From: Alphaproteobacteria bacterium
GTDB taxonomy: Bacteria; Pseudomonadota; Alphaproteobacteria; Micavibrionales; Micavibrionaceae
Reading direction: 5' to 3'
Length of the DNA stretch: 64,000 bases
NCBI GenBank assembly: GCA_022763065.1
Contig: JALEGH010000038.1
Span: 5,476-69,475, forward strand
Part shown: piece after piece, positions 3,653-55,832 of the stretch
Numbering within the stretch: position 1 is the stretch's first letter
Layout of the letters: each line of letters begins with the position of its first letter
The notes under the pieces: model-generated
Database searches by the model: none
The model's input: only the letters and a program-made list of their open reading frames with translations
What the model was told of the DNA's origin: nothing
Translations under genes and position numbers: made by a program

Positions 3653-3681
3653 TTGACTTTTGAATATAAAAGGATTATATT
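3653..3681 (+). promoter_or_regulatory. near-consensus sigma-70 promoter (TTGACT-N17-TATATT) upstream of the island-1 effector gene
   Basis: TTGACT at 3653-3658, a 17-nt spacer, and TATATT at 3676-3681. The -10 sits inside an AGGATTATATTCCT box that recurs upstream of the island-2 effector. Confidence 0.55.
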
Positions 3682-3695
3682 CCTATTTAAATATA

Positions 3696-3750
3696 AAACC
3701 GCTTTTGCGCTCCTGAAAAATCAGGGATCTCGCGCTAAAGCGGTTTTTTT
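3696..3750 (+). terminator. terminator-like leader hairpin plus T7 run between the promoter and the effector start codon (attenuator or short RNA candidate)
   Basis: AAAACCGCTTT (3696-3705) pairs with AAAGCGGTTTT (3738-3748). Inner pairs are GCGC/GCGC and TCCTGA/TCAGGGA. TTTTTTT follows at 3744-3750, and the ATG is at 3779. Confidence 0.5.
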
Positions 3751-3778: not shown

Positions 3779-4711
3779 ATGAGCGTAGAAATTGAACAGA
3801 GCATAAACCTGCAAAAGCAGGCCAACGTTAAAACGAGCGCCAAAACGGGGGCAAAAACCGGCATAAAATCCGGAGCAAAAGAGGCAGCGCGCGATGTCCG
3901 GGCGGTAAAAACCGCACTCAATAAGCTGGGATTTTATCACCCCGTAAAGGGGCGGGGCGTGACAGGAGATATAGGGCCAGATTTTTTAAAAGCCGTGCAA
4001 AATTTTCAACGCGCGCATTTCATTCCCGTGCGGAAGAGTTTGGTTCCTGGTGATATAACGATGGAGCGTTTAAACGCGGAGCTGGATAACCCCGTCAATT
4101 TTCAGCTTTTCAAAAGCAAATATATCTGGCGCACAGTAGGGGATGGAAATGTCCGCCACACACATTCCGCGCGGGAGGGACGGACTTTCTCATGGGACAC
4201 TCCACCCGAAGGCGGCCATCCGGGCGAAGATTTTGGCTGCCGTTGCTGGGCAGAGCCCATCGTGCCCTTCACACCCAAAGGGTTGAATAATTCACAAACC
4301 GACCTCTTTGATAAAAGCATTCCATTAGACGCGATTGAAAGTTCCGCCAGTCCGTTGGACTTTCTGGGCGGTGGTGTTGCGCTTCTTCAGGGAGGAAAAA
4401 TACGAATTGGTCAAAGTACTTTCGATATATTAAAAAATATTTTTAAGGGAAATATAAAATTAACAGGAGCGCAAACAAAAAATTTGGTACGTTTTACTAA
4501 GAAAGTACCGGCGAATGCTAAACAATCTATCGAAGTTGTTCAGTCCAAGAGAGGTAATATAACGTTCAAGGCTACTTCTCCCGGGAAAATATTTGGATCA
4601 AGGGCTGTCTATGAAAAAACGGTTGATGCAAAAGGGAATACGATAAAATATATAAAAACAACATACGATTCTAAAGGGAAGATTATTCATATAAAAAACA
4701 AATTGAAGTAG
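3779..4711 (+). CDS. polymorphic-toxin-like protein with a disordered N-terminus, a PG_binding_1-like domain, a phage MuF (SPP1 gp7) core motif, a conserved linker and a variable C-terminal domain
   Basis: aa 38-100 (VRAVKTALNKLGFY...AVQNFQRAHF...PGDITMERL) resemble a peptidoglycan-binding domain. aa 115-160 (YIWRTVGDGNVRHTHSAREGRTFSWDTPPEGGHPGEDFGCRCWAEP) match the MuF signature D-x-x-VR-x-x-H...G...P...CRC. The DNA for aa 140-200 is repeated downstream. The C-terminal ~110 aa are A+T-rich and unique. There is no Sec signal peptide. Confidence 0.75.
   Translation: MSVEIEQSINLQKQANVKTSAKTGAKTGIKSGAKEAARDVRAVKTALNKLGFYHPVKGRGVTGDIGPDFLKAVQNFQRAHFIPVRKSLVPGDITMERLNAELDNPVNFQLFKSKYIWRTVGDGNVRHTHSAREGRTFSWDTPPEGGHPGEDFGCRCWAEPIVPFTPKGLNNSQTDLFDKSIPLDAIESSASPLDFLGGGVALLQGGKIRIGQSTFDILKNIFKGNIKLTGAQTKNLVRFTKKVPANAKQSIEVVQSKRGNITFKATSPGKIFGSRAVYEKTVDAKGNTIKYIKTTYDSKGKIIHIKNKLK
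4196..4378 (+). repeat. homology arm copy A (coding, aa 140-200 of the effector)
   Basis: gacactccacccgaaggcggccatccgggcgaagatttt...gacgcgattgaa recurs at 6101-6246. Its 3' part (4301-4378) recurs at 7003-7080. Confidence 0.85.
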
Positions 4712-4715
4712 GAAA

Positions 4716-5075
4716 ATGACGATGCTTAAAGATGAAAAACGAAAAAAGATGCTTGGAAATTTTATTAATTTTGAAGGTGATTTGCAGCAGATTTCGAAAC
4801 AAATATTAGAGCATGGATGGGATTATGAAGGGGATCCTGTCATCATTACAAAAGAAAATGTTAGAAATGTTTTGCAAAATTACATTGAAGGTAAAATAAC
4901 GTCTGAAGATGTTCAGAAATGGGCTGATTTTTTGGAAGTGCGTGAAGATGTTGATTATTTTGAGCATGACGAAGATGTTCTATCTCAAATTATTCATGAG
5001 TTGGCAAATCCTGATATCGAGGGCGTGTTGTCTTTAGATAGAGCGAAGAATGTATTGAAAAGTAAAACGATCTGA
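4716..5075 (+). CDS. candidate cognate immunity protein (small acidic cytoplasmic protein)
   Basis: 119 aa. It starts 5 nt after the effector stop with AGGAAA upstream, is acidic, and has no signal peptide or TM segment. The assignment is from position only. Confidence 0.5.
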   Translation: MTMLKDEKRKKMLGNFINFEGDLQQISKQILEHGWDYEGDPVIITKENVRNVLQNYIEGKITSEDVQKWADFLEVREDVDYFEHDEDVLSQIIHELANPDIEGVLSLDRAKNVLKSKTI

Positions 5076-5091
5076 GGAAAAAGATTAAAAG

Positions 5092-5292
5092 ATGAATAAT
5101 ATAATACACAAAAAAGGTAACACGGTACGTGCATCAATAGAGTTTGAAAAAGATATAGGATACTACTTGTATATTTTTGATCCAAATTCAAAAGAGATCA
5201 CTCATGATTTTATCGAAGATACATTAGAAAATGCCAAGCAAAAAGCAAAAGAAGATTTTGGATTAGAGATTGAAGAATGGATTGAAAATTAA
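5092..5292 (+). CDS. small acidic hypothetical protein (possible second or orphan immunity gene)
   Basis: 66-aa ORF in the same orientation as its neighbours, A+T-rich like them. No motif recognised. Confidence 0.35.
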   Translation: MNNIIHKKGNTVRASIEFEKDIGYYLYIFDPNSKEITHDFIEDTLENAKQKAKEDFGLEIEEWIEN

Positions 5293-5399
5293 AACAGTTC
5301 TTTTGATATAGTGGTGTTGCCATTGTTCAGGGCGGGCGCGTCCTTATCGGTTCATTTGCTTCAGGCACCAGCAGCAAGTTAATTTTTCAACAAACCCGC

Positions 5400-5765
5400 G
5401 TGATAACAGGACGCGCAGCCGCTTTATTGACCAGCCGTTTCCGCAGTACGAAGTGGCTTGATGATACGCCGAGGCGTCAAATTCAGCGTAAGTTTATTCA
5501 TGCTAGAGCTTTAGGTGTTAAAGGCAATCAAAATAATAAAAATTTAAAGAAATTCAGACAAGCGCTCAAAGACCATGTAAAATCCAAAGATACTATTGTG
5601 ATTAAGGGGAGTTATCATAGACAGCCTACGACACACTATTATAACACAAAGACAAAAATTAATGTCATGAAAGATTCTGAAGGTAAGCTACGGTCTGCTT
5701 GGGAATTAACAGATGGGCAAGTAGAAAATATTTTAAGGAGTGGAAATTTAGGAGGCAGTAAATGA
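5400..5765 (+). CDS. orphan colicin-D-like tRNase toxin C-terminal module (no delivery domain)
   Basis: AALLTSRFRSTKW...RKFIHA...VIKGSYHRQPTTHYYNTKTKINVMKDSEGKLRSAWEL fits my recollection of the colicin D nuclease domain (K-x-x-H, G-[TS]-Y-[RH], HYYN-x-x-T, S-x-W). The ORF starts at a GTG. In-frame homology to the linker of cassette 3 extends upstream to a stop at 5304-5306. Confidence 0.6.
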   Translation: MITGRAAALLTSRFRSTKWLDDTPRRQIQRKFIHARALGVKGNQNNKNLKKFRQALKDHVKSKDTIVIKGSYHRQPTTHYYNTKTKINVMKDSEGKLRSAWELTDGQVENILRSGNLGGSK

Positions 5766-6088
5766 TAGATGACCCACACGATTATATTCCTTTAATTGAA
5801 GGTTTTTTAGAAAAAAAAATACCACCTAAAGATTTCCAACTAAAATTTTTTGAAAAAATTGGAACAGATAGATACTTGTATAAAAATAACGAAGACTATT
5901 TTGAACTTATAGACAGCCTTTGCTACTACGTCGATGCTTATGTGGACGAAGACGTTTTTACGCGTATAGATGGCCGATTATTTGATATAGAAGGTGAGCC
6001 GGTTGAGCCAGATGAACATGATCTGGACGAAGACCAGTTGCGTGAAGTTGTCACAAAAATATATAACGAAATTAAAGCATTAAAATAA
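5762..6088 (+). CDS. colicin-D-immunity-like (ImmD family) protein
   Basis: 108 aa. The N-terminal LIEGFLEKKIPPKDFQLKFF and the acidic middle are typical of ImmD-like immunity proteins. Its ATG overlaps the toxin stop (ATGA). It is paralogous to 6735..7001. Confidence 0.6.
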   Translation: MIDDPHDYIPLIEGFLEKKIPPKDFQLKFFEKIGTDRYLYKNNEDYFELIDSLCYYVDAYVDEDVFTRIDGRLFDIEGEPVEPDEHDLDEDQLREVVTKIYNEIKALK

Positions 6089-6098
6089 TTTTCCCCGT

Positions 6099-6246
6099 GA
6101 GACACTCCACCCGAAGGCGGCCATCCGGGCGAAGATTTCGGCTGTCGTTGTTGGGCGGAGCCTATCGTTCCCTTCACACCCAAAGGGTTGAATGTTTCAC
6201 AAACCGATCTTTTTGATAAAAGCACTCCACTAGACGCGATTGAACA
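6099..6246 (+). repeat. homology arm copy B
   Basis: Near-identical by eye to 4196-4343, encoding DTPPEGGHPGEDFGCRCWAEPIVPFTPKGLNVSQTDLFDKSTPLDAIE. It begins directly after the stop of the preceding immunity gene. Confidence 0.85.
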
Positions 6247-6721
6247 GGCAGTGAGTCCATTGGATGTGATTGGAGGAAGCATTACGATTATTCGGGGTGG
6301 CGCTGTTCTCACTGGTCAATATATTGTTGGTAATGGCGGTAAGCTTGTTTAAAAACAAGCTTCTCGTTTCACTGACCAAACAGCCGCACTTCTTACCAGC
6401 CGTTTCCGAGACACAAAATGGATTGATAAAGTACCTAAAAAGAGACTAAACAAAAAATTTGATAAACACGCCGGAATTTTTAATATAAAAGGAAACCGGA
6501 ACAACAAAACTCTTGGAGAATTTACAAAGGCTATTGAGAGGCATGTTAAATCGCCAGACACGATAGTGATCAAAGGAACATACCGCCGACAGCCCGCAAC
6601 GCATTACTATAATCCTAAAACAGGAATTAATCTGATGCGCGATGGTCAAGGAAATTTCTGGTCAGCGTGGAAATTGGGACAAGAACAAGCAAAAAATATA
6701 TTAAAAAGAGGAAGTTTATAA
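6101..6721 (+). pseudogene. silent orphan cassette: homology arm, linker, in-frame TAA, then a colicin-D-like toxin domain
   Basis: There is no start codon, since a TGA sits at 6098-6100 immediately upstream in frame. An in-frame TAA lies at 6350-6352. After it the frame reads KQASRFTDQTAALLTSRFRDTKWIDKVPKKRLNKKFDKHAGIFNIKGN...VIKGTYRRQPATHYYNPKTGINLMRDGQGNFWSAWKL, which is homologous to 5400..5765. The terminal stop is at 6719-6721. Confidence 0.7.
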
Positions 6722-6734
6722 TAAGGGGAACGAA

Positions 6735-7001
6735 ATGGATTTACGCGGCTACGATATATTGATTGAAAGCTTTTTGGAAAAAAAGATTACAGTTGAGGAG
6801 TTTGAAAGAACCTATTTGGATAAGTTTGTAGAGGAAGATATACTGGGTGATGATCTTTATCAGCCCCTTCAATGGCTTTTTTCTGAAGTGGATGAATACA
6901 CCTCGCCAGAGTTTTATCCTTTGGAAGAAGGCGATGTTGATGAAGCGCAACTTCGTAAAACTGCGGCAGAAATTCTGGAACAAATCCGCGCGTTGAAGTA
7001 A
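6735..7001 (+). CDS. colicin-D-immunity-like (ImmD family) protein
   Basis: 88 aa, with LIESFLEKKITVEEFERTYLDKF and a C-terminal ...EILEQIRALK. Paralog of 5762..6088. AAGGGGAA lies upstream of the ATG. Confidence 0.6.
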   Translation: MDLRGYDILIESFLEKKITVEEFERTYLDKFVEEDILGDDLYQPLQWLFSEVDEYTSPEFYPLEEGDVDEAQLRKTAAEILEQIRALK

Positions 7002-7002
7002 C

Positions 7003-7094
7003 TCTCTTTTTGATGAAGACATTCCACTAGATGCGATTGAAAGTTCTGCCAGTCCGTTGGACTTTCTGGGCGGCGGTGTTACTTTTCTCTCTTA
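7003..7094 (+). repeat. homology arm copy C, a truncated remnant at the right island border
   Basis: ctctttttgatgaagacattccactagatgcgattgaaagttctgccagtccgttggactttctgggcggcggtgtt matches 4301-4378. It reads LFDEDIPLDAIESSASPLDFLGGGVTFLS then a stop, with no toxin domain following. Confidence 0.8.
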
Positions 7095-8189
7095 GAATGG
7101 AGTTCGGTGGACCTGAGGGAGTTTTGGCGGCAAGTGGGGTGGATTTTGAATAACATTTTGAATTTGTAACATTACCGCATCTGTCAGTTTTGCAGGTGTA
7201 TCGAAGCCATCCCCGCAAGCTTGTTTGGCAGAGATCGGAGGAAGGTAATATACATCAAGTTCAATCCCGCCCCTAAAACTTGTCGGGATGATATTTTTAA
7301 GCATGTGCAGCCCTTGATTTGGCGCGCCGTCCCCATAATAGGCGAATTGATCACATAATGGATCACCCGCTTTAACATCCTGCCCCTGCACACGTCGTAT
7401 GATCATAGCAACCGGCTGTACGGCAGCTTCGTCTTCTGGACCTGTAATTTCTCCATTATCATCTTGCGTGAATAAGGTACGAAAAATTGTTCGTGTTGGT
7501 TTGACTATAATTTCTTTTCCGGGGGACATTGTTCCTTCTGGGAACAAAAGAAGTCCGTTTCCATCTGGATCATGAACAAGCTCTTTGGATTGATTGTAAA
7601 CAGCAATACGGTTTGCCATTTTTTTGTCTTCCGGGGTTGCATCACCCATGTCTTGGTTGCGCTTCACAGGCATGAGAGCGACATTCGAGAAAGCCTTTCC
7701 GATCAGTGGAGTTTTTTCTACGCCTTGCATAGCAACAACAGGTGCCTTGGTACGGACAAAATGCACGAAACCATCAAGCCAAGAAATGTGGTTAGAAGCG
7801 TATAGTACCTTTTTGTGTCCCAATTCTTTTGCGGTTTGCCCATAGTAATTAACTTTGATGCCGGCATCTTCAAAGGCTTGTGCGACAAAATCAGCACCCA
7901 TTTGAATTTGTGTTTGCTTTTCTCTTTGCGTTTTTGCAGGTTGTTTTAGCGCCCTTACAGTTTTGCTGTGTGTCCAGAGCAAATATTTCAGAATTTTGTA
8001 TCCGTTATAAAAGCTTTTTAAAACCCCAATATTGTTTAGAGGTTGCATCCTGTATTGCTTATACAGACTTCTATCCTCAGGCCATATAGGAACGCCTTTG
8101 GGAAGTGTCAGAATTGCAACGCGCTCAGGTAATGGACGAATTGTTGCTTTGAAGTTCGGATGATCGTTCTTTTTCAGTTTGGTTGCCAT
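7092..8189 (-). CDS. PlsC-family lysophospholipid acyltransferase
   Basis: NHISWLD (H-x4-D) and FPEGT acyltransferase motifs. 365 aa. Confidence 0.75.
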   Translation of the reverse strand: MATKLKKNDHPNFKATIRPLPERVAILTLPKGVPIWPEDRSLYKQYRMQPLNNIGVLKSFYNGYKILKYLLWTHSKTVRALKQPAKTQREKQTQIQMGADFVAQAFEDAGIKVNYYGQTAKELGHKKVLYASNHISWLDGFVHFVRTKAPVVAMQGVEKTPLIGKAFSNVALMPVKRNQDMGDATPEDKKMANRIAVYNQSKELVHDPDGNGLLLFPEGTMSPGKEIIVKPTRTIFRTLFTQDDNGEITGPEDEAAVQPVAMIIRRVQGQDVKAGDPLCDQFAYYGDGAPNQGLHMLKNIIPTSFRGGIELDVYYLPPISAKQACGDGFDTPAKLTDAVMLQIQNVIQNPPHLPPKLPQVHRTPF

Positions 8190-8212: not shown

Positions 8213-8564
8213 TTACATTGCGACGGTTGGGTTATGTGATCGCGGCATATCTTGCACATCTACAACAGGTGGAAGATGGGGTGGGTTTTGAATGACATTT
8301 TGGATTTGTAACATGGAGGCATCACACACTTTGGAAGGCGTATTAAAACCTTGCTCATAAGCTTGCTTAACAGAAATAGGTGGCAGGTAATAAACATCTA
8401 ATTCAATTCCGCCTCGGTAACTTGTTGGGATAAGGTGTTTTATGACGTGGCCAATTGGGAGTTTCTCTTGGTAATGCAAGATTTTTCAGCTCTGTAGGTA
8501 GATCACGAATTTGAGCCGTGAAATCCGGATGTTTTTTAGATTTTTTTCTTACAGATTGAGACAT
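8213..8564 (-). pseudogene. internal-deletion remnant of a paralog of the 7092..8189 acyltransferase
   Basis: From the ATG at 8564 it reads MSQSVRKKSKKHPDFTAQIRDLPTELKNLALPRETPNWP, which matches the N-terminus of the intact gene. It then jumps out of frame to ...GHVIKHLIPTSYRGGIELDVYYLPPISVKQ...QNVIQNPPHLPP, which matches the last ~70 aa. The catalytic middle is missing. Confidence 0.75.
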
Positions 8565-10965: not shown

Positions 10966-11844
10966 ATGCGAAAGCATGTTCGAAATAAAATCTCACTTTT
11001 ATCTGTTATGGTGATTGGCCTATCTTTGGGCGCTTGTGATCACTATTCCAATGACTTGGCGGCTCTTAAAACAACAGATAGTTATCAGAGCGCTTCGGTG
11101 CAGCATGTCACGGATATTGCGCCGGCGGCTGGGCCGGGAGCGTCATCTGTTATTGATCCCGCTCCATTTTCTGAGCATTTGGCGCGGGAATATACCCGTT
11201 TGGCGTTGAGCGAGCAAGAAGCGTACGACTACCGCGCGGCGAAATATTATACGGCTAAGGCAAAATCATTACGTTCGGGGAAAATGGTGGCTCCGGCTAT
11301 GATGAAAGCAGATGACATTAAGGATCAGGGCATTTTGTCCGAATTGCAGGAGGCACGAAAGCAGTTGGTTGGTGCGATGCACCATTACAATATACCTGAA
11401 AATCGAGGGTCTTTGGCGCGCGCGCAATCGCATTTTGATTGTTGGGTCGATCAGGCGGCAGAGGGAAAAGAGGATAGTCAGTGTAGGTCCGTTTTTGAGA
11501 CATCTATGGCGGCGCTCCAATTTCCGGAAGGTTACGTGAAGTCGATTCCGATTTTGTTTGGTGGTGCTGACGGGCAAATGGCTTCCGTTTCTTACAAAGG
11601 AATGAAGGAGGTTATTGGTTTTTGGAAGCAATATGGTCAGAGCGGTTTGTTTGATTTAACGATTTTAGCGCCTGCTTCTTTTTCACCGGAAACGGTTGAT
11701 TCTCAAGTGGCATCCATTCGCAGTATCTTGAAATATAACGGCGTGTTTGAACCTGTTGAAGTGCAGTTAGGTGAAACTGTGCAAGAGCCTGCCATTCAAA
11801 TTCGTAAAAAAGATAGCGTTTCCGAAGAGCTAGGCTCTATTTAG
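10966..11844 (+). CDS. hypothetical lipoprotein
   Basis: Signal peptide with lipobox LSLGAC. 292 aa. No catalytic motif recognised. Confidence 0.6.
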   Translation: MRKHVRNKISLLSVMVIGLSLGACDHYSNDLAALKTTDSYQSASVQHVTDIAPAAGPGASSVIDPAPFSEHLAREYTRLALSEQEAYDYRAAKYYTAKAKSLRSGKMVAPAMMKADDIKDQGILSELQEARKQLVGAMHHYNIPENRGSLARAQSHFDCWVDQAAEGKEDSQCRSVFETSMAALQFPEGYVKSIPILFGGADGQMASVSYKGMKEVIGFWKQYGQSGLFDLTILAPASFSPETVDSQVASIRSILKYNGVFEPVEVQLGETVQEPAIQIRKKDSVSEELGSI

Positions 11845-46903: not shown

Positions 46904-47401
46904 CTAGGCATTGTTGTACGGCCAATCTTTAGGATTTTCGTGAGATAGGAGGATTTCAAGGACTTTTTTGCCGGTAGCATGAAGCAGGCGGTTACTCTCG
47001 TGCAGGATGGTGTCTTTATCATCGCTGGGGAGAGGAATATGGGTTATTTTGCGTCTTTTTTCGCTTGGAAATGGTCGTTCAGCGTCAAATCGAATGCCTT
47101 TTTCTTGTTCATAATCTTGAATTGAGAGTAAGTTCAGTTGATTGGTGAAATAAGGGATAGTAATGCCTAGGTAAATGCTCCATCCAATATCCCAGCAAAA
47201 CTGATAATCATCTAAAGTATGAGAAAAAGTTTTTTCAGGAAAGGCCCGATGAGTGACAAAGAGGCGGTGCTTTCGCCAATAATGGGGTTCCTGTTCAATT
47301 TGTAAAACAGGCTCCCCATCATAATATTGCAGAGACAAAAGAAGCATTTCTTTACCGCTATAATCTAGAGTATTTTGTTCTAATCTCTCAAAGGTCCCCA
47401 T
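46904..47401 (-). CDS. candidate immunity protein (intact copy of a three-member tandem family)
   Basis: The ATG at 47401 (MGTFERLEQ...) overlaps the stop of the upstream effector by 22 nt. 165 aa, cytoplasmic. There are two decayed paralogs downstream. Confidence 0.55.
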   Translation of the reverse strand: MGTFERLEQNTLDYSGKEMLLLSLQYYDGEPVLQIEQEPHYWRKHRLFVTHRAFPEKTFSHTLDDYQFCWDIGWSIYLGITIPYFTNQLNLLSIQDYEQEKGIRFDAERPFPSEKRRKITHIPLPSDDKDTILHESNRLLHATGKKVLEILLSHENPKDWPYNNA

Positions 47402-48003
47402 TGATCCTCCGGTTTTCCTGCTCGGCAATTGCCGTAACGGTTAGAAGCTGATGCATGACAGATAGCACCAGCTCTTTTGCCTCGAGTATTTGTTGTTTCA
47501 TTGCACCGTTTTGTTTCACTTTCATAAATAGCATCACAATCAGGGCCTTGATTGTCAAGCTCTTTGTTCTTGTTTTGTGCTCCATTTTTGTGGCGGTCTT
47601 CTATCCATTTTTGCATGGACATCGCTGTGATCCCGGCAAGGGGCAAAAGGCGTGCGCCCAAGGCAGTTGCGGCGGCGGCACCGGCACCACCACCGGCCAT
47701 TTTTATATTTTCTTCTTCCTTTCGCTCTCTTTCTTTCTCCTTTTCTTTGACTTTTTTGTTCAATGTGCGTTCCGTCTCACCACCCGGATTCATAAATCCA
47801 TCGGGTTTGAGCTTTTCTTTCCGCTGGAAGCCCCATATGGCATCGTCCAGCTCCCGATCGATGTAGCCATTGTTAATCTCGTCATTATAACGGCCAATGG
47901 TTTTGAATTTTTTCTTTGTTCGGATGACGTCATCCGGGTCATTTTCCATGTTGTTGCCGACGGATTTGGAAATAGGTTTGAATAGATCATCAAAAAAGCT
48001 CAT
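47380..48003 (-). CDS. PG_binding-like-domain protein with a Gly/Ala-rich hydrophobic segment and a 4-Cys C-terminal module (candidate toxin/effector)
   Basis: It starts at the ATG at 48003 (MSFFDDLF...). aa 25-82 (DVIRTKKKFKTIGRYNDEINNGYIDRELDDAIWGFQRKEKLKPDGFMNPGGETERTL) align with aa 39-99 of the island-1 effector. After a KE-rich linker comes MAGGGAGAAAATALGARLLPLAGITAM, then C-x10-C-x14-C-x10-C. The 5' 119 codons of the ORF-track entry are antisense to fliQ and are rejected. Confidence 0.65.
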   Translation of the reverse strand: MSFFDDLFKPISKSVGNNMENDPDDVIRTKKKFKTIGRYNDEINNGYIDRELDDAIWGFQRKEKLKPDGFMNPGGETERTLNKKVKEKEKERERKEEENIKMAGGGAGAAAATALGARLLPLAGITAMSMQKWIEDRHKNGAQNKNKELDNQGPDCDAIYESETKRCNETTNTRGKRAGAICHASASNRYGNCRAGKPEDQWGPLRD

Positions 48004-48043
48004 GTCATTTATTCCTTTCTGGTTCGTGTTTTGTTTTGCGCAT

Positions 48044-48071
48044 AAAAAAACCGCCCTGATGAAGGCGGTTT
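48044..48071 (-). terminator. terminator-like leader hairpin plus T7 run between the promoter and the island-2 effector start
   Basis: The minus strand reads AAACCGCCttcatcagGGCGGTTTTTTT. The 3' half (ATCAGGG..GCGGTTTTTTT) resembles the island-1 leader. A second small hairpin, AAATGCGtccGCATTT, lies just upstream. Confidence 0.5.
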
Positions 48072-48109
48072 GGTGAAATGCGGACGCATTTGGGGTGTTA
48101 TTGAATATG

Positions 48110-48138
48110 AATATATTCCTAAAATTCGCTTTTGTCAA
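48110..48138 (-). promoter_or_regulatory. consensus sigma-70 promoter (TTGACA-N17-TATATT) of the island-2 effector
   Basis: The minus strand has TTGACA (48138..48133), a 17-nt spacer and TATATT (48115..48110), within an AGGAATATATTCATATT box (compare AGGATTATATTCCTATT at 3671-3687). Confidence 0.55.
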
Positions 48139-54561: not shown

Positions 54562-54707
54562 AAATGTTCTTTTTTTGTTCTTTTTGCTTTACAAGAAGAA
54601 CAAAGCATGTACATATTGGTGTCATCATTAGCTGTGCGAAAATTGCACTAAGCCCATGAGTGAGTATTGAAGCATTATTGAACCTATGTCAGAAAGGAAG
54701 AAAGCAT

Positions 54708-55832
54708 ATGTCTGTAACCTCAATGAAAAAAGATGAAAAAATGACCAAAAGTAATGATGAAAAGGCTAAGGCGTTAGACGCGGCGCTCTCGCAGATTGAA
54801 CGGGCTTTCGGTAAAGGCTCGGTGATGAAGCTGTCGGCAGATCACAACCCGATGGAAGTGGCTTCGGTTTCGACGGGGTCTCTAGGGCTTGATATTGGTT
54901 TAGGGATTGGCGGCGTACCGCGTGGGCGGATTGTGGAAATTTATGGGCCTGAAAGTTCCGGTAAAACAACATTGGCGCTGCATATTATTGCGGAGGCACA
55001 AAAGGCCGGAGGGCAATGCGCGATTGTGGATGCGGAGCACGCGCTGGATCCATCTTATGCGCGTAAACTTGGTTGTGATGTGGATGAGCTGCTAATCTCT
55101 CAACCTGATGCAGGAGAACAAGCGCTTGAAATTACGGATACTCTGGTGCGCTCCGGTGCGCTGGATGTTGTAGTTGTTGACTCTGTTGCGGCTTTGGTGC
55201 CTCGGGCGGAGTTGGAAGGTGAGATGGGCGATACCCATGTGGGATTGCAGGCCAGATTGATGTCGCAGGCTTTGCGGAAACTGACAGGCTCCATTTCGCG
55301 CTCAAATACGGTCGTGATCTTTATTAACCAGATCAGGATGAAGATCGGGGTGATGTTCGGTTCTCCTGAAACCACAACAGGGGGGAATGCACTTAAATAC
55401 TATTCTTCTGAGCGATAGGATATCCGACGGATTGGAGCAATCAAAGACCGCGATCAGGTCGTTGGAAACCAGACACGGGTGAAGGTTGTAAAGAATAAAA
55501 TGGCGCCCCCATTCCGTCTGGTGGAATTTTATATTATGTATGGTCAGGGGATTTCAAAAACCGGTGAAATATTGGATCTTGGGGTGCAAGGCGGGTTCGT
55601 TGAAAAATCTGGCTCTTGGTTTTCCGCCGAAGGAGAGCGCATTGGTCAGGGGCGTGAAAACGCCAAGCAATATTTGCTGGATCATCCTGATATGATGCAA
55701 AAGCTTGAAAATAAAATACGGGAAAATGCAGGCCTCATGTCAGATGCCATGCTCGTTGGTCCGGAAGATGAGAGCGGACCGGATCTGGAAGTTGTAGAAG
55801 AGAAAAAACCAGCCTCAAAGAAGACGAGTTAA
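54708..55832 (+). pseudogene. recA: recA interrupted by one in-frame TAG
   Basis: GPESSGKTT Walker A and all other RecA motifs are present. A TAG at 55416-55418 replaces the conserved Leu of ...KFYASVRLDIRR (here KYYSSER*DIRRIG). The same frame continues through ...[12 protein letters not shown]... to 55832. AGGAAG lies upstream of the ATG at 54708. Confidence 0.8.

Follow-up and report, generated by a model that had tools for sequence, protein, structure and literature searches.

A chromosomal polymorphic-toxin island with a peptidoglycan-binding/MuF-core module and no phage genes nearby, in the flagellar gene cluster of an alphaproteobacterium

To our knowledge, MuF toxins form the one large class of polymorphic toxins whose delivery has never been demonstrated, and the class has been defined as exclusively prophage-borne. 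Here we analyse an island that carries a toxin of this type on the chromosome of an alphaproteobacterium of the Micavibrionaceae, between flhF and flhA in a stretch of 64,000 nucleotides (positions 5,476 to 69,475 of contig JALEGH010000038.1), referred to below as the window. It consists of a full-length toxin gene and a candidate immunity gene followed by two orphan toxin/immunity cassettes that resemble colicin D (ColD) and its immunity protein ImmD. The best explanation of these data, for which we estimate a probability of about 0.8, is a chromosomal polymorphic toxin/immunity island in which a module made of a peptidoglycan-binding (PGB) domain and half of a MuF domain is joined via a disordered linker to an exchangeable C-terminal tip.

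In the literature on MuF toxins, ColD appears among the MuF-trafficked toxins, in remnants of prophages that include terminase and portal genes (Zhang 2012, PMC3482391), and 96% of bacterial muf genes have been located in prophages or their remnants, in a study that makes no mention of peptidoglycan, orphan cassettes or Alphaproteobacteria (Jamet 2017, PMC5576092). The island has in common with the MuF polymorphic toxins a MuF-derived N-terminal part and a variable C-terminal toxin followed by a small downstream immunity open reading frame (ORF), and its family shares with them ColD, ColE5-like and other nuclease tips. Unlike the phage MuF toxins, the island protein keeps only the C-terminal half of MuF, preceded by PG_binding_1; the PGB-MuF genes are short, chromosomal and multi-copy and have no neighbouring portal, terminase or capsid genes, and their loci have orphan arrays, a DAI..P..GG junction motif and a dedicated promoter and leader. 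The hosts differ as well, being mostly Firmicutes prophages for the phage MuF toxins and Micavibrio-like and other Alphaproteobacteria for the PGB-MuF genes. Given that 96% of bacterial muf genes are prophage-borne, a phage-free PGB-MuF family departs from the published rule; and since a prophage context was looked for and is absent, the island stands outside the phage-borne MuF toxin class as defined.

Other polymorphic and colicin-type toxins are also close in part. Colicin D and ImmD (1V74, 1TFO; PF11429, PF09204) show the same succession of a tRNase domain and an acidic protein matching the ImmD profile; unlike them, the island has no receptor-binding or translocation domains, its genes are not on a plasmid, and in its cassettes D614 is not conserved and K607 and K610 are partly replaced. 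With the contact-dependent growth inhibition (CDI) system cdiA-CT/cdiI, as well as Rhs and MafB, it shares a conserved delivery part, a short conserved junction at which the homology stops, promoterless toxin/immunity pairs that have been displaced and retain upstream homology, and tips that differ between related strains. Unlike these systems it lacks two-partner secretion (TPS), filamentous haemagglutinin, RHS shell and MafB N-domains, its junction motif differs from VENN and PxxxxDPxGL, and its proteins are ten-fold smaller. What is new here is a polymorphic toxin of the MuF type that shows a new N-terminal architecture, lies outside any prophage and comes with orphan arrays and a regulatory leader of its own. 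In the searchable literature nothing relevant was found on MuF combined with peptidoglycan binding, or on Micavibrio combined with polymorphic toxins, which is consistent with the suggestion of the original prediction, made from the sequence, that such a combination may be undescribed.

The toxin gene (3779..4711, plus strand) encodes a protein of 310 aa with an isoelectric point (pI) of 10.0. Taking Pfam matches as valid only above the curated gathering cut-offs, both domains anticipated for it were recovered: PG_binding_1 at 3893..4030 (aa 39-84; 30.9 bits, cut-off 23) and Phage_Mu_F at aa 112-157 (38.6 bits, cut-off 29.6). The latter match covers profile positions 64-110 of 112 only, while genuine phage MuF proteins cover positions 3-110, so that the MuF part is indeed cut down to its core and fused to a PGB domain; TIGR01641 scored 33.3 bits, below its cut-off of 39.65. 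The MuF core (YIWRTVGD...HPGEDFGCRCWAEP; 4112..4258, aa 112-160) corresponds to the C-terminal half of Phage_Mu_F and is followed by the linker (4259..4411), which contains the junction motif PLDAIE..SPLDFLGGG. The ORFs and motifs of the original prediction were all found where it had placed them. A motif DAI..P..[DE]..G after the core was present in 31 of 83 proteins with PGB and MuF core, versus 3 of 119 MuF-core proteins without PGB.

The AlphaFold model of the 310-aa protein is confident over aa 1-165, disordered over aa 169-211, where the predicted local distance difference test (pLDDT) falls below 50, and confident again over aa 212-310. As modelled, the N-terminus has the three-helix PG_binding_1 fold, which superimposes on PDB entry 4xxt with a root-mean-square deviation (rmsd) of 2.0 A over 62 columns (31% identity) and also on PGB domains of phage lysozymes (rmsd 1.5-2.5 A). 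The top structural matches of the MuF core in BFVD are phage minor capsid proteins (E = 1.8e-5), and its closest relatives by both structure and sequence are phage minor capsid proteins whose genes adjoin portal genes. Across 19 diverse family members 18 positions of the N-domain are invariant, those in the MuF core being Y115, W117, D122, R126, H129, P148, G149, C154, R155, C156 and W157; H129, C154 and C156 may form a zinc site.

The tip of the toxin, CT1 (4412..4708, plus strand; aa 212-310, pI 10.4), is built of three helices followed by five strands. Its GC content is 31%, and CT1, the 119-aa gene behind it and the next ORF all lie at 28-34%, against 52% for the N-domain, which resembles the flanking genes in this respect. 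The original prediction had described this region as a unique A+T-rich C-terminal domain; A+T-rich it is, but not unique, since CT1 is a widespread unclassified toxin domain found in 510 clusters. A word-index search with CT1 alone returned no homologs, and an exhaustive HMMER search was needed to find the 510 cluster representatives, in all of which the domain lies at the extreme C-terminus, on carriers of 88-4,649 aa. The carriers sampled bear RHS repeats, SpvB/TcdB, DUF6443, PT-TG or Fil_haemagg_2. Its C-terminal position in all 510 representatives, on carriers of this kind, indicates that CT1 is a genuine shared toxin tip, which elsewhere forms the end of Rhs, CdiA-like and Tc-like toxins.

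CT1 matched no Pfam family. Modelled alone it gave a pLDDT of 92 and a predicted TM score (pTM) of 0.82, and a comparison of this model with the PDB yielded no significant neighbour (best E = 0.12, TM <0.5) and no RNase among the top matches. An RNase of the BECR fold (barnase, EndoU, ColE5, ColD, RelE) was considered for CT1 and rejected, the model being confident and without a significant PDB match; the likeness to that fold is confined to the order of secondary-structure elements.

Directly downstream lies a gene for an acidic protein of 119 aa (4716..5075, plus strand; pI 4.7). Homologs of this protein follow CT1 homologs directly at loci L018 (41% identity) and L060 (36%), and as the same tip is thus followed by the same partner, the 119-aa protein is likely the cognate immunity protein of CT1. 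In Pfam it gave only a weak match to DUF7073, under the cut-off. The next ORF (5092..5292, plus strand), for an acidic product of 66 aa, had no family match and no homolog in any locus compared, and is therefore unsupported as a gene, which corrects the count of five small same-strand genes proposed for the region. Throughout the island basic toxin parts (pI 10.4-10.8) are paired with acidic partner proteins (pI 4.1-4.7).

The two ColD/ImmD pairs further downstream are promoterless orphans, each preceded by a remnant of the MuF end or of the linker. Orphan cassette A (5297..5765, plus strand) is an open frame from 5297 with a junction remnant, GGVAIVQGG, at 5311-5335, and its ColD-type domain is encoded by the ORF at 5400-5765; orphan cassette B (6089..6721, plus strand) comprises a MuF-end and linker arm (6091-6349), a TAA (6350-6352) and a ColD-type domain (6353-6718). 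As foreseen, both domains match Colicin_D, with 47.6 and 68.3 bits respectively (Pfam cut-off 25), and they align over the whole tRNase domain, cassette B to 1V74 (E = 7e-14) and cassette A to 1TFO (E = 4e-11). The residues listed as essential in colicin D are K607, K608, H611, D614 and S677 (Zhang 2012, PMC3482391). The catalytic K-x-x-H and S-x-W positions proposed in the original prediction are borne out, K608, H611, S677 and W679 being retained in both cassettes. Cassette A carries the replacements K607 to R, K610 to I and D614 to A; cassette B retains the KK..KH and S.W positions and has I in place of D614.

Each ColD-type ORF is overlapped or abutted by its immunity gene. That of cassette A (5762..6088, plus strand) encodes 108 aa (pI 4.3), and that of cassette B (6735..7001, plus strand) 88 aa (pI 4.1). 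Colicin_immun, the family expected for both, was matched with 28.3 bits (cut-off 22) and 47.3 bits, the latter over profile positions 3-87 of 88. This is a match at the level of the Pfam profile only: a pairwise search of both proteins against the ImmD chains of the PDB gave no match. The immunity protein of cassette A is 48-54% identical to the products of the L005 immunity genes, while those of cassettes B and A are only 31% identical to each other.

The relationship between the full-length gene and the orphans is recorded in repeated DNA, as had been noted for the linker in front of the last cassette and at the island edge. The segments 4186-4427 and 6091-6332 are 78% identical overall. Over the first ~160 nt the figure is about 90%, with perfect matches of 38 and 24 nt, and the similarity drops sharply right after the junction motif PLDAIE; the final part of the MuF core makes up, together with linker sequence, the homology arm (4186-4350). 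Cassette A is preceded by a junction remnant of 25 nt (5311-5335). The right edge of the island is formed by a terminal linker stub (SLFDEDIPLDAIESSASPLDFLGGGVTFLS*; 7006..7090, plus strand) that abuts the 3' end of an acyltransferase gene, and of which positions 7006-7088 are 87% identical to 4304-4386, with an exact run of 26 nt. In cassette B the in-frame TAA at 6350-6352 separates the arm from the toxin domain, so the label of silent cassette given to it was correct. This TAA is centred in a near-perfect palindrome at 6341-6362 (AAGCTTGTTTAAAAACAAGCTT), in which two HindIII sites form the 10-nt arms.

The same slot between flhF and flhA is occupied in the window and at loci L005, L006 and L007, and rather than an invariant locus it presents three kinds of tips: unclassified CT1 in the window; ColD in L005, with one orphan ColD/ImmD cassette starting in the linker; ColD in L006, with an orphan starting at 'HRCWAEAY' and a stub; and ColE3 ('Cytotoxic', 87 bits) with an immunity gene in L007. 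At another location, L010 has ColE3, a stub and an orphan ColD/ImmD pair. The swapping of toxin and immunity genes behind a constant 5' part, as originally envisaged, holds in so far as the tips differ; the part in front of them is not constant, the N-domains at this slot being 46-53% identical, versus 81-86% for FlhA. Judged from these sequences, the locus has the constituents by which polymorphic toxins are recognized, namely an N-terminal part that is conserved, variable tips behind a junction, and orphan cassettes with upstream homology.

A plausible history would be that tips are exchanged by homologous recombination within the arm, and that in the window an ancestral ColD tip was displaced by an imported A+T-rich tip, which brought its immunity gene along. 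The ColD tips would be expected to cleave the anticodon loops of tRNA, and nucleic acid is probably the target of CT1 too.

The N-terminal module defines a sizeable family, with 127 proteins in a first search and at least 491 at E <= 1e-10 in a second, as well as 379 relatives in a scan of one genome per species; a lookup of cluster members added only accession MCI5060219.1. Full-length matches, with PGB and MuF core, come mostly from metagenome-assembled genomes (MAGs) labelled Micavibrio, 'Pseudobdellovibrionaceae' or Alphaproteobacteria. The PGB-MuF genes are short, with products of 250-350 aa, and several genomes have more than one locus, with intact copies. The sole cultured carrier found is Azospirillum rugosum IMMIB AFH-6 (L054), whose protein combines PG_binding_1, Phage_Mu_F and Colicin_E5 and whose toxin gene is followed by two small genes similar to the immunity gene of L011.

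The tips of the family include ColD, ColE5, ColE3 ('Cytotoxic'), CT1, coiled-coil or glycine-rich tails, and GH24 lysozyme and GH108 domains, the last two in members P0327, P0333, P0351 and P0363. PGB-MuF-core proteins at L041 (1342-2268), L016, L020 and L022 end in a domain resembling lytic transglycosylases; for tips of the L041/L020 type SLT scored 18.7 bits, below the cut-off of 21.3, so that this assignment was not accepted and stands as a suggestion only. The GH24 and GH108 fusions, together with the SLT-like tips, mean that the module carries cell-wall-degrading payloads too. In Micavibrio aeruginosavorus ARL-13, GMV_1126 (a 311-aa 'peptidoglycan binding domain protein' with GEI values of 8.3 in attack and 4.0 in attachment) is a possible member only, no ARL-13 entry being among the homologs. 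In Rhodobacterales, L052, L061, L066 and L072 encode MuF-core-only proteins of ~286 aa with a tail 'W..RDF..HYY.GNGR.VTVRETGHL' and conserved neighbours, on high-coverage contigs of ~6 kb, and such a gene is also present on the 5.8-kb Roseobacter denitrificans plasmid NC_008389 (H28). These ~6-kb elements constitute another non-phage home of the MuF core.

The claim that no prophage surrounds the island was upheld. No phage genes were found among the scanned ORFs of at least 150 aa in the window, and no portal, terminase, capsid or secretion-system family recurred among 144 neighbours of 29 other loci searched with Pfam and PHROGs; AbiEii toxins and integrases occur among the neighbours of some loci. 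No phage or plasmid record covered at least 80% of the N-terminal module, the phage matches being ordinary MuF proteins beside portal genes. A truncated MuF domain, a stop codon that interrupts cassette B and A+T-rich segments of foreign appearance could also be taken as signs of a decaying prophage remnant in which a muf gene survives without present function. We find this barely credible for a group of at least 491 related proteins with 18 invariant N-domain positions, several intact copies per genome, intact toxin-immunity pairs and a conserved dedicated promoter and leader, and with no other phage gene nearby.

The toxin gene of the window is preceded by a family-specific promoter-like element (3653..3684, plus strand) composed of a -35 TTGACT, a 17-nt spacer and a -10 TATATT (10 of 12 consensus matches), by a palindrome, AGGATTATATTCCT, that covers the -10 (3671-3684, plus strand), and by a leader hairpin with a T-run that resembles an intrinsic terminator (3695..3750, plus strand; free energy (dG) of -27.5 kcal/mol, z -6.1, none of 200 shuffles being as stable). 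Nearly all the PGB-MuF genes examined are preceded by the same elements in fixed order: a -35 TTGAC; a palindrome, AGGAaTATAnTCCT, that covers the -10 and is spaced by 13 nt in the clade of the window and by 16 nt elsewhere; and, 25-45 nt ahead of the start codon, a GC-rich hairpin with a U-run. TAGGA.T.T is invariant in 21 aligned loci, and 19 of 20 family leaders fold alike (dG -11 to -35 kcal/mol, z -2.9 to -6.2), with stem sequences that vary among loci and pairing that is kept.

In 1.28 Mb of loci, 22 of the 24 matches to the strict promoter/palindrome pattern lie directly upstream of PGB-MuF genes, and the window-type pattern has two matches in the window (3653 and, on the minus strand, 48138) versus none expected by chance. 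As the genes upstream are divergent (flhF in the window), the hairpin terminates no other gene. A search of Rfam with the island and leader gave no family, the single match being a chance snoRNA (E = 0.94), and the 300 nt in front of six loci contained no sigma-54, sigma-28 or CtrA motifs. Viral contigs scanned for the promoter/palindrome gave at least 120 matches, all consistent with chance and none with a MuF homolog or hairpin. The PGB-MuF genes are thus predicted to carry their own sigma-70-type promoter and a leader terminator.

This layout suggests, by analogy, control by antitermination. In lambda PR'-QBE-tR', Pseudomonas aeruginosa AlpA/ABE and Caulobacter GafZ/ZBE a conserved element likewise lies within a strong promoter (PMC11150451), and the Q, AlpA and GafZ units likewise have an intrinsic terminator tens of nt downstream, before the coding region, the likeness being one of layout only. 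Unlike the Q, AlpA and GafZ elements, the palindrome here overlaps the -10, and it could equally be the operator of a repressor. Expression would be held off until derepression or antitermination; no candidate antiterminator gene was identified in the window or the other loci.

The minus-strand match belongs to a second copy of the promoter/palindrome/leader arrangement (window 47380-48138), with TTGACA at 48138, AGGAATATATTCA at 48120-48108, and hairpins and a T-run at 48091-48044. It precedes a gene for a protein of 207 aa (48003..47380) that adjoins fliR in the flagellar cluster and is followed by a 147-aa ORF. The 207-aa protein lacks a MuF core; it has a PGB-like N-terminus (21.9 bits, just below the cut-off), a hydrophobic stretch rich in Gly and Ala, and a Cys-rich C-terminus.

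A tight transcriptional control, as the promoter and leader would predict, is also what could be expected of a toxin that is never exported, and the island might then be an intracellular toxin-antitoxin or abortive-infection module whose MuF core senses, or acts as decoy for, the portal of an invading phage. The absence of a signal peptide and of secretion genes nearby, the AbiEii toxins and integrases near some loci and the derivation of the MuF core from a portal-binding protein fit such a role. The architecture is, however, that of exported toxins, with orphan cassettes bearing arms, a junction motif and tips common to Rhs, CdiA-like and Tc toxins, and a PGB domain and lysozyme fusions are sensible only outside the cytoplasm, which makes this possibility very unlikely.

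The window contains a flagellar gene cluster of ~50 kb followed by housekeeping genes. The cluster begins with flhG, flhF, the island, the acyltransferase gene, flhA, a sigma-54 activator, motA, fliG, fliF, flbT and flagellin, and ends with flgE, flgD, fliK, flgI, fliX, flgH, flgA, flgG, flgF, fliL, fliM, motB, fliP, fliR and flhB. The island had been described as sitting inside a flagellar regulon, and it does lie within the flagellar cluster, but this position is clade-specific and the toxin gene appears to have its own sigma-70-type promoter. No flagellar gene lies within 10 kb of 29 PGB-class loci, and the flagellar location is a trait of the clade of the window and not of the family. Within the clade, linkage at slots other than that between flhF and flhA (L011 adjoins fliI/fliJ, and L041 a sigma-54 activator and fliN) is suggestive at most. 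The linked cases come from one clade, judged by 73-86% identity of their flagellar proteins, and the window is not a random sample, so that no enrichment of family members in flagellar clusters is claimed.

This position could reflect a functional coupling, the toxin being secreted by the flagellar type III export apparatus. The protein of 310 aa has no Sec signal, members occupy the flhF-flhA interval in the window, L005, L006 and L007 and other slots in L011 and L041, and the second PGB-type gene of the window with the same promoter and leader adjoins fliR. ARL-13 has been reported to lack type III and type IV secretion systems apart from the flagellum, and the same route was proposed for a BECR RNase in flagellar operons of Firmicutes (Zhang 2012, PMC3482391). 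We nevertheless consider it very unlikely that the flagellum exports the toxin. At 29 other PGB-MuF loci no gene within 10 kb is flagellar, and their 144 neighbours include no recurrent flagellar family; the linked cases all come from one clade and hence cannot count as independent; the gene is transcribed away from flhF, with a sigma-70-type promoter of its own and none of the flagellar promoter motifs (sigma-54, sigma-28, CtrA) searched upstream of six loci; and its first 10 residues are modelled inside a folded domain (pLDDT 91), leaving no free N-terminal signal.

Some other features of the window concern the surroundings of the island. One segment of the acyltransferase gene (7092-8189), from its C-terminal part, occurs twice, positions 7126-7307 being 73% identical to 8268-8449, and two minus-strand ORFs (8213-8479 and 8403-8564, spanning 8213-8564) resemble the C- and N-termini of the acyltransferase, which looks like a degraded paralog. 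Its presence between the island and flhA makes the flhF-flhA interval seem prone to rearrangement. In the window, L005 and L006 the interval from flhA to the sigma-54 activator holds a gene for a lipoprotein without a Pfam family (10966-11844 in the window), and homologs of it (L020 8090-9004; L022 87-1001) are found at a distance of 1-2 kb from PGB-MuF genes whose tip is SLT-like, with no flagellar genes nearby. The recA ORF (54660-55418) encodes only 252 aa and matches Pfam RecA positions 1-215 of 262; it may be a frameshift or a MAG assembly error.

As to how the toxins of the island would reach a target, we weakly favour, as a tentative proposal, that the MuF core docks the toxin into a phage-like capsid, or one like that of a gene transfer agent (GTA), encoded elsewhere in the genome, and that the PGB domain then acts at the wall of the target cell. 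The nearest relatives of the MuF core are capsid-internal, portal-binding proteins, SPP1 gp7 being known to bind the portal and to sit in the capsid (Jamet 2017, PMC5576092); the fusions of the module to peptidoglycan hydrolases resemble ejected virion proteins; and the regulatory layout is reminiscent of late-gene control. Moreover, the gene table of M. aeruginosavorus ARL-13 holds a terminase/gp7-family module, GMV_556-563 (Supplement 4, PMC3189940), which is nearly silent in both life phases, in a paper whose text reports no phage (PMC3189940).

An extension of this proposal, which we regard as doubtful, is that the dispersed PGB-MuF genes are 'satellite cargo' of a capsid-forming element located elsewhere, whose late regulator would switch them on together. 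Such a regulator would act at the shared palindromic promoter and read through the leader terminator, and the MuF core would load the toxins into capsids, so that the particle would become a device for toxin delivery. The host chromosome would be where payloads are stored and exchanged, possibly in the service of predation or rivalry among Micavibrio-like bacteria. In Caulobacter, GafY binds ~18 dispersed accessory GTA promoters too (PMC11150451).

Several observations weigh against the polymorphic-toxin island as we describe it, or against the delivery proposed for it. The N-domains at the flhF-adjacent slot are conserved in kind, and with 46-53% identity they do not form a constant 5' part. 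Neither cassette is ready for swapping as it is, because cassette B has an in-frame stop and cassette A only a 25-nt remnant. D614, listed among the essential residues (Zhang 2012, PMC3482391), is conserved in neither of them, and for CT1, which yielded no relative by fold, any activity is a guess. What remains of the MuF profile is its C-terminal half alone, whose binding to a portal would be a supposition. Finally, no capsid, portal or terminase gene is found in the 64-kb window and none recurs near the 29 other loci, and large GTA clusters have been reported to be absent from Micavibrio (PMC5721377).

The existence of hundreds of short, chromosomal, phage-free and multi-copy members separates the MuF core from the phage and puts its real role in question. 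The combination of promoter, palindrome and leader terminator offers a handle on the regulator of these genes and, through it, on the partner machinery, and since one carrier, Azospirillum rugosum IMMIB AFH-6, is in culture, the question of delivery can be put to the test. If carrier genomes turn out to hold no capsid, the PGB and MuF-core module would represent a delivery route of an undescribed kind. CT1 and its 119-aa partner represent in addition a widespread toxin/immunity pair (510 clusters) that has neither a known fold nor a Pfam family. That the PGB-MuF family is concentrated in Micavibrio-like predators, lastly, is a hint that it may serve predation or the rivalry of predators with one another.

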